This document shows, in pieces, positions 1 through 353 of a DNA stretch of 353 nucleotides (within the stretch, counting starts at the first letter, position 1; the number at the start of each line of letters is the position of its first letter). The notes beneath the pieces were generated by a model that was given only the letters and a program-made list of their open reading frames with translations, was not told the DNA's origin and searched no databases. The position numbers were made by a program, and so were the translations under genes. This stretch comes from Escherichia coli. Lineage in GTDB: Bacteria; Pseudomonadota; Gammaproteobacteria; Enterobacterales; Enterobacteriaceae. The DNA lies in assembly GCF_003334385.1 (NCBI RefSeq), contig NZ_QOWN01000195.1, one strand, 5' to 3'.

Positions 1-353
1 TGGTCACCCACGTACTGGGAGACAATCACCGGCAGCCCCTGGAAGGAGCCACCCAGCAGGGTCATGTCCGGGTATTCCTTCTGACCCAGCGCATTTTTAC
101 GCATGGACAGTGCCAGGGCATTGGTGCTGGACATCAGCCAGACCGCACCGGTGGGCTGCAGGTTTGCTGCCACAAACTGTCCAAACGCAGCCTCTGCATC
201 CGCATCCGGGTTACCGGTTGATGCCGTGCCCTTCACATCATGGGTGATGGACGCCGGGGAGACATCTGCCACTGCGGCTTTTTTCGGGTCCACAAAGTCT
301 GTATCCAGACGCGCCACCACCGCTTCCGCCAGCGCATTACGGACCAGTGCATC
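1..353 (-). CDS. Internal fragment of a phage major capsid protein, HK97-like fold (partial at both ends; N-terminus lies beyond position 353, C-terminus beyond position 1)
   Basis: Seen in sequence: the reverse complement read from position 353 downward (first codon 353-351 GAT, last complete codon 5-3 GAC, positions 2-1 begin the next codon) gives 117 codons with no stop: DALVRNALAEAVVARLDTDFVDPKKAAVADVSPASITHDVKGTASTGNPDADAEAAFGQFVAANLQPTGAVWLMSSTNALALSMRKNALGQKEYPDMTLLGGSFQGLPVIVSQYVGD. Plus-strand frames have stops at 82-84 (TGA), about 217-219 (TGA) and about 248-250 (TGA). Codon usage is biased in the enterobacterial manner. Product call is from established knowledge plus recollection, not a search: the segment ...TLLGGSFQGLPVIVS... 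resembles the conserved C-terminal core of HK97-family major capsid proteins (HK97 gp5 has ...GLPVV... in an equivalent position, and family members typically show ...LLGxPVxxS...), and the preceding G-x-V-x-L ... N-x-G spacing is similar. Confidence that this is a real CDS is about 0.9; the figure given is for the capsid product call. Confidence 0.6.

Follow-up and report, generated by a model that had tools for sequence, protein, structure and literature searches.

An A6 run in the capsid gene of Stx-type Escherichia coli prophages is most probably an ordinary Lys-Lys codon pair

Runs of a single base inside coding sequences are known from several settings with which the run studied here can be compared. 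Their proneness to error is textbook knowledge, and homopolymer errors occur in 454, Ion Torrent, PacBio or Nanopore data. In E. coli, AAA codons read by tRNA-Lys are prone to slippage, as at the -1 frameshift site of dnaX, where the motif A AAA AAG is combined with a downstream stem-loop; phage structural genes do use recoding, and efficient transcriptional slippage typically involves runs longer than six As. At the contingency loci of Neisseria, Haemophilus and Campylobacter, poly-A, poly-G or poly-C tracts lie in coding sequence, and gaining or losing a single base shifts the reading frame. For the gene that carries the run, the closest described counterparts are gp60 of Enterobacteria phage 2851 (YP_009909243), which has the same domain order with nothing notable differing, and gp03 of Pseudomonas phage PAJU2, a 'prohead protease fused capsid protein' which likewise shares the domain order.

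The DNA analysed (the window) is a stretch of 353 nt, of which three features are needed in the following:

1 to 353, minus strand: internal fragment (codons 442-558) of a gene of 645 aa for an HK97-type major capsid protein that is probably fused to a prohead protease and a scaffold, based on 100% identity to genes annotated as 'phage major capsid protein' and on Pfam, PHROG and TIGR01554 matches.
279 to 284, minus strand: A6 homopolymer on the coding strand (T6 on the plus strand), read directly from the sequence.
94 to 98, minus strand: another, shorter homopolymer (coding strand A5, plus strand T5), in CGT AAA AAT at gene positions 1579-1583, read directly from the sequence.

Re-reading of the minus strand gave GAC CCG AAA AAA GCC GCA around the longer run, so that the position, the strand and the peptide Pro-Lys-Lys-Ala given for it in the initial annotation are correct. 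The same annotation had placed the run inside an open reading frame that is intact in the window, and both statements hold: the frame read from base 353, with a translation beginning DALVRNALAEAVVARLDTDFVDPKKAAVADVSPAS, is open across all 117 codons and belongs to the annotated phage major capsid protein gene. In the complete protein, the two AAA codons encode Lys465 and Lys466 (gene positions 1393-1398), corresponding to positions 5070-5075 of the reference locus from E. coli E2865 (L001), in which the capsid gene occupies 3678-5615.

Matches to the window were found in 1249 of 5426 complete E. coli genomes at 2924 places, with 100% identity in many chromosomes, and in Stx-converting and related lambdoid phages, e.g. 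phage 2851 (genus Pankowvirus), the DNA identity is 99.4-100%. Against the fused protease/capsid genes of E. coli phages and prophages it amounts to 99.7-100%. The gene belongs to an E. coli prophage that is lambdoid and of the Stx type (Pankowvirus-like). The C-terminal part of the protein is an HK97-type capsid domain (PF05065, Phage_capsid, E = 5.9e-14, residues 386-635), with a TIGR01554 match of 78.1 bits (cutoff 27.5) and a match to the major head protein family PHROG 617 (E = 8e-262). At the N-terminus and outside the window, Peptidase_S78 was detected (PF04586, E = 5.4e-8, residues 48-152), while TIGR01543 (46.4 bits, cutoff 59) stayed below and NF045541 (54 bits, cutoff 525) far below their cutoffs. 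Along the protein, Peptidase_S78 is followed by a coiled-coil region and then by Phage_capsid; the central region gave weak, non-significant Pfam matches only and we take it to be the scaffold from its position, which is the reason for the label 'protease-scaffold-capsid fusion'. The gene lies in a head-morphogenesis module with the order terS, terL, capsid gene, a 73-aa ORF, portal, head-tail connector, head closure and a gp10-like gene. With a profile score above the cutoff and a location in the head module, the gene in the window encodes a major capsid protein of the HK97 family.

The K465-K466 stretch is variable and sits just past a conserved segment of the capsid domain. An AlphaFold2 prediction from an alignment of eight sequences (mean pLDDT 45.3, pTM 0.38) was too poor to place the two residues, and the only sequence match to a solved structure, the major capsid protein 9d9w, was weak (E = 0.0015), with the KK region aligning beside a gap. 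In E. coli N5D43 (L005 1-640), an IS1 element has truncated the capsid gene of one prophage copy in its N-terminal protease portion, a different route of inactivation.

The occurrence of the run is no more frequent than chance gives. When the window was randomised, 33% of mononucleotide shuffles and 43% of the sequences simulated with a first-order Markov model had at least one run of six or more bases, and the native locus of 10,353 nt contains 28 such runs, i.e. about 0.95 per 353 nt. Within the capsid gene of 1938 nt, A6 is the longest homopolymer, followed by G5, T5, T5 and A5. As lysine is encoded by AAA 16 times and by AAG 13 times in this gene, and as Lys465-Lys466 is the sole Lys-Lys dipeptide of the 645-aa protein, AAA AAA is an unremarkable outcome. 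Longer homopolymers are present in the same prophage module, with G10 between an HNH endonuclease gene and terS (L001 1110-1119), A8 inside terL (2220-2227) and G7 in a 407-aa ORF (8296-8302).

Comparison with homologous genes for indels at the run, as proposed in the initial annotation, showed a conserved length: in a spread sample of E. coli matches, the 59 full-length rows are all exactly 353 nt long. Among close relatives (at least 94% DNA identity), A6 is invariant while adjacent synonymous sites vary, e.g. GCC GCA versus GCG GCG. In homologues with at most 83% protein identity the run is missing. The site reads GAC AAG (D-K) in E. coli L007 (75% DNA identity) and in Moraxella phage Mcat3, TCA AAA (S-K) in Salmonella phage FSL SP-016 and GCC AAG (A-K) in Pseudomonas phage PAJU2; AAC GGT (N-G) in a Burkholderia phage and TCC AAT (S-N) in a Ralstonia phage were both found with a one-residue gap. 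The residues K, D, S, A, N, S and D at the position of the first Lys, together with the gap in two homologues, mark it as a variable and indel-tolerant position. The second Lys is K in six of eight aligned homologues; on this alignment it is moderately conserved only, and nothing keeps the run at the nucleotide level. The capsid gene of L007 (168-2118, E. coli A34), the one frameshifted pseudogene among the more distant homologues, is annotated as such and changes frame around positions 335 and 850 of the gene; a break at the site homologous to A6 was looked for and not found there, and this site carries no run.

For the length of the run within E. coli, queries of 47-49 nt were compared with complete genomes by megablast, each 28-mer seed spanning the whole run. 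The A6 control, built on the first (reference) flank type only, was found at 2302 places in 1051 genomes. Three places with A5 were obtained for the first flank type and one for a second flank haplotype, counts from which length variants with an additional nearby substitution are missed by the 28-mer search, and A7 was detected in complete E. coli genomes with neither flank. An exact-pattern scan of IMG/VR similarly gave A6 in at least 120 contigs, A5 in one and A7 in none. The site is therefore shortened in about 0.15% of the database copies, each time alongside many other indels, and an isolated change at the run was seen in no copy. Phase variation was rejected on these lengths: the run shares with contingency loci that it is a homopolymer in coding sequence, but the tract has only 6 nt and, of more than 2300 copies, about 99.8% have A6 as a fixed length.

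The copies with A5 are the complete genomes NZ_CP017249, NZ_CP015831, NZ_CP060083 and NZ_CP045827 and the IMG/VR contig UViG_2534681940_000017. In each of them the capsid gene has 1-10 further indels and its 9-kb surroundings have 6-17; single-base deletions make up nearly all of these, and most lie in short runs. Four indels, all single-base deletions, were counted in the capsid gene of NADC 5570/86-24/6565, 11 deletions (1-6 nt) in that of 644-PT8 and eight (1-3 nt) in that of G1/2, while for AUSMDU00014361 (L137) the count of indels is two within the gene and about 17 over 9 kb, other A6 runs included. The IMG/VR contig L008 differs from the reference locus by seven indels in 9 kb, of which six are changes of homopolymer length (G10 to G8, A7 to A6, T7 to T6, T4 to T3, A6 to A5 and G5 to G6) and in the seventh, GGGAGG has lost its A. 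In the four A5 genomes, adjoining terminase, portal, connector or tail genes are flagged 'frameshifted' as well, and the substitution divergence of the A5 copies is ordinary. The second run of the window, A5 at 94-98, also lacks a base in NADC 5570/86-24/6565 and 644-PT8 (L129, L130), two of the four error-rich assemblies, which indicates that the A6 run is not uniquely vulnerable.

From this indel-rich context, the A5 copies look like assembly errors. The many co-occurring single-base deletions, mostly in short runs, resemble the homopolymer errors of 454, Ion Torrent, PacBio or Nanopore data; some of the A5 alleles may nevertheless be true slippage mutations of decaying prophages. The opposite reading, that A6 is a genuine mutational hotspot at which replication slippage from A6 to A5 inactivates the capsid gene and adds to prophage decay, so that the A5 alleles would be real, could draw on the recurrence of A5 in four complete genomes and one IMG/VR contig, on the fact that only deletions were seen, and on the description of many prophages of this family as defective (PMC2669165). 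We consider it unlikely, since all A5 copies lie amid other indels (2-11 per 1.9-kb gene, about 17 in 9 kb in L137), combine ordinary substitution divergence with neighbouring genes that are all flagged as frameshifted, and show an indel pattern that fits the homopolymer error of long-read or 454-type assemblies; no copy has a change restricted to the run. Selection might instead act on the protein, with the Lys-Lys dipeptide retained e.g. for surface charge or as a site for the maturation protease and the run as a side effect. The frequent K at the second position would agree with this, but the changing residues at the first position and the one-residue gap in two homologues make such a selection very unlikely.

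A role of A6 as a recoding site, giving rise through programmed ribosomal frameshifting or transcriptional slippage to a protein of 479-480 aa with protease, scaffold and a partial capsid domain, would be in line with the slip-prone AAA codons of E. coli and with the recoding known for phage structural genes, and an A run read by tRNA-Lys is what the site has in common with dnaX. Unlike dnaX, however, the six As follow a G and end in AAA instead of AAG, and the zero-frame context CC G AAA AAA G does not follow the heptamer rule X XXY YYZ. A -1 or +1 shift, or equally an A7 or A5 allele, leads to a product of 479 or 480 aa with a new tail of 13-14 residues, ending in ...PKKSRSGRCLPGVHHP or ...PKKPQWQMSPRRPSPMM; the shifted frames stop after 13 and 14 codons, respectively, and are dead ends by which no domain is gained. 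A stable downstream RNA structure, sought in the 111 nt from the run onward, was not found (-38 kcal/mol, z = -0.81; 40 of 200 shuffles fold equally well or better). As the run is also missing from the more distant homologues and six As are fewer than is typical of efficient transcriptional slippage, recoding at this site was rejected as extremely improbable. That low-level transcriptional or ribosomal slippage might supply the truncated 479-480 aa protein for a role in assembly, in this Stx-type prophage clade only, has a likelihood close to nil.

We are therefore left with an ordinary Lys-Lys codon pair in a prophage capsid gene, a reading that we regard as very probably correct. The choice of AAA AAA for the adjacent K465 and K466 would leave the T6/A6 run as an incidental by-product with no regulatory or recoding role, and its only consequence would be the generic one-base error risk of a 6-nt homopolymer, where an occasional miscall or rare one-base mutation would truncate the protein at 479-480 aa. 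The warning of the initial annotation that the run is error-prone is weakly borne out by A5 at four places versus A6 at 2302 and A7 at none. Its further advice, that the run would be the first place to look if the full gene appeared frameshifted, stands insofar as the site can appear frameshifted through A5; it is not specially first, because A5 was found only in copies with many other single-base deletions, so that the run is one of many such sites. Where an assembly shows the capsid gene frameshifted, A6 accordingly deserves inspection along with several other short runs, and in all cases found many other indels lay nearby. What is shown here directly is how the run is built, where it occurs and that it is not conserved; in kind, such a run is already known and ordinary, and as the capsid gene is annotated in thousands of genomes, the finding matters very little.

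Some 2.1 kb further downstream, the portal region of the same prophage (L001 7171-7191) shows a polymorphism of more potential value than the A6 run, with G5 or G6 at 7171-7175. The portal gene is called 'frameshifted' by PGAP in all fetched complete-genome copies that include it; this polymorphism is the cause, the label being given to the G5 form. With G5, the region is read as one ORF of 454 aa and another of 407 aa, the stop of the former and the start of the latter overlapping in ATGA, and the 454-aa ORF contains the whole HK97 portal domain (TIGR01537, positions 2-343 of 343, 365 bits); with G6 there is one fused ORF of 859 aa, as in phage 2851. Both alleles are common in complete E. coli genomes, with 720 places for G5 (371 genomes) and 1369 for G6 (782 genomes). 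For the loci compared, mostly IMG/VR contigs, G5 was observed on many diverged flank haplotypes, all with the TGA/ATG overlap, and G6 was concentrated on one. Because so many diverged haplotypes keep the overlap, G5 seems to be inherited rather than a sequencing error, and G5/G6 looks like an inherited alternative gene architecture and not a random error. The label 'portal protein, frameshifted' on hundreds of E. coli prophage copies may thus describe a natural two-gene arrangement and not a defect. It is speculation that a -1 slip at A AAA TGA, where the first ORF ends, could lead into the frame of the second and so fuse the two in G5 copies. A literature search on this portal frameshift gave nothing specific; in the Sakai prophages Sp3, Sp6, Sp9 and Sp12 the portal was scored 'defective', with the site not given in the main text (PMC2669165). 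The 407-aa ORF (L001 7188-8411) had no significant Pfam or NCBIfam match; three weak hits in it, about 54 residues apart (106-135, 160-189 and 214-243), suggest that it carries internal tandem repeats.
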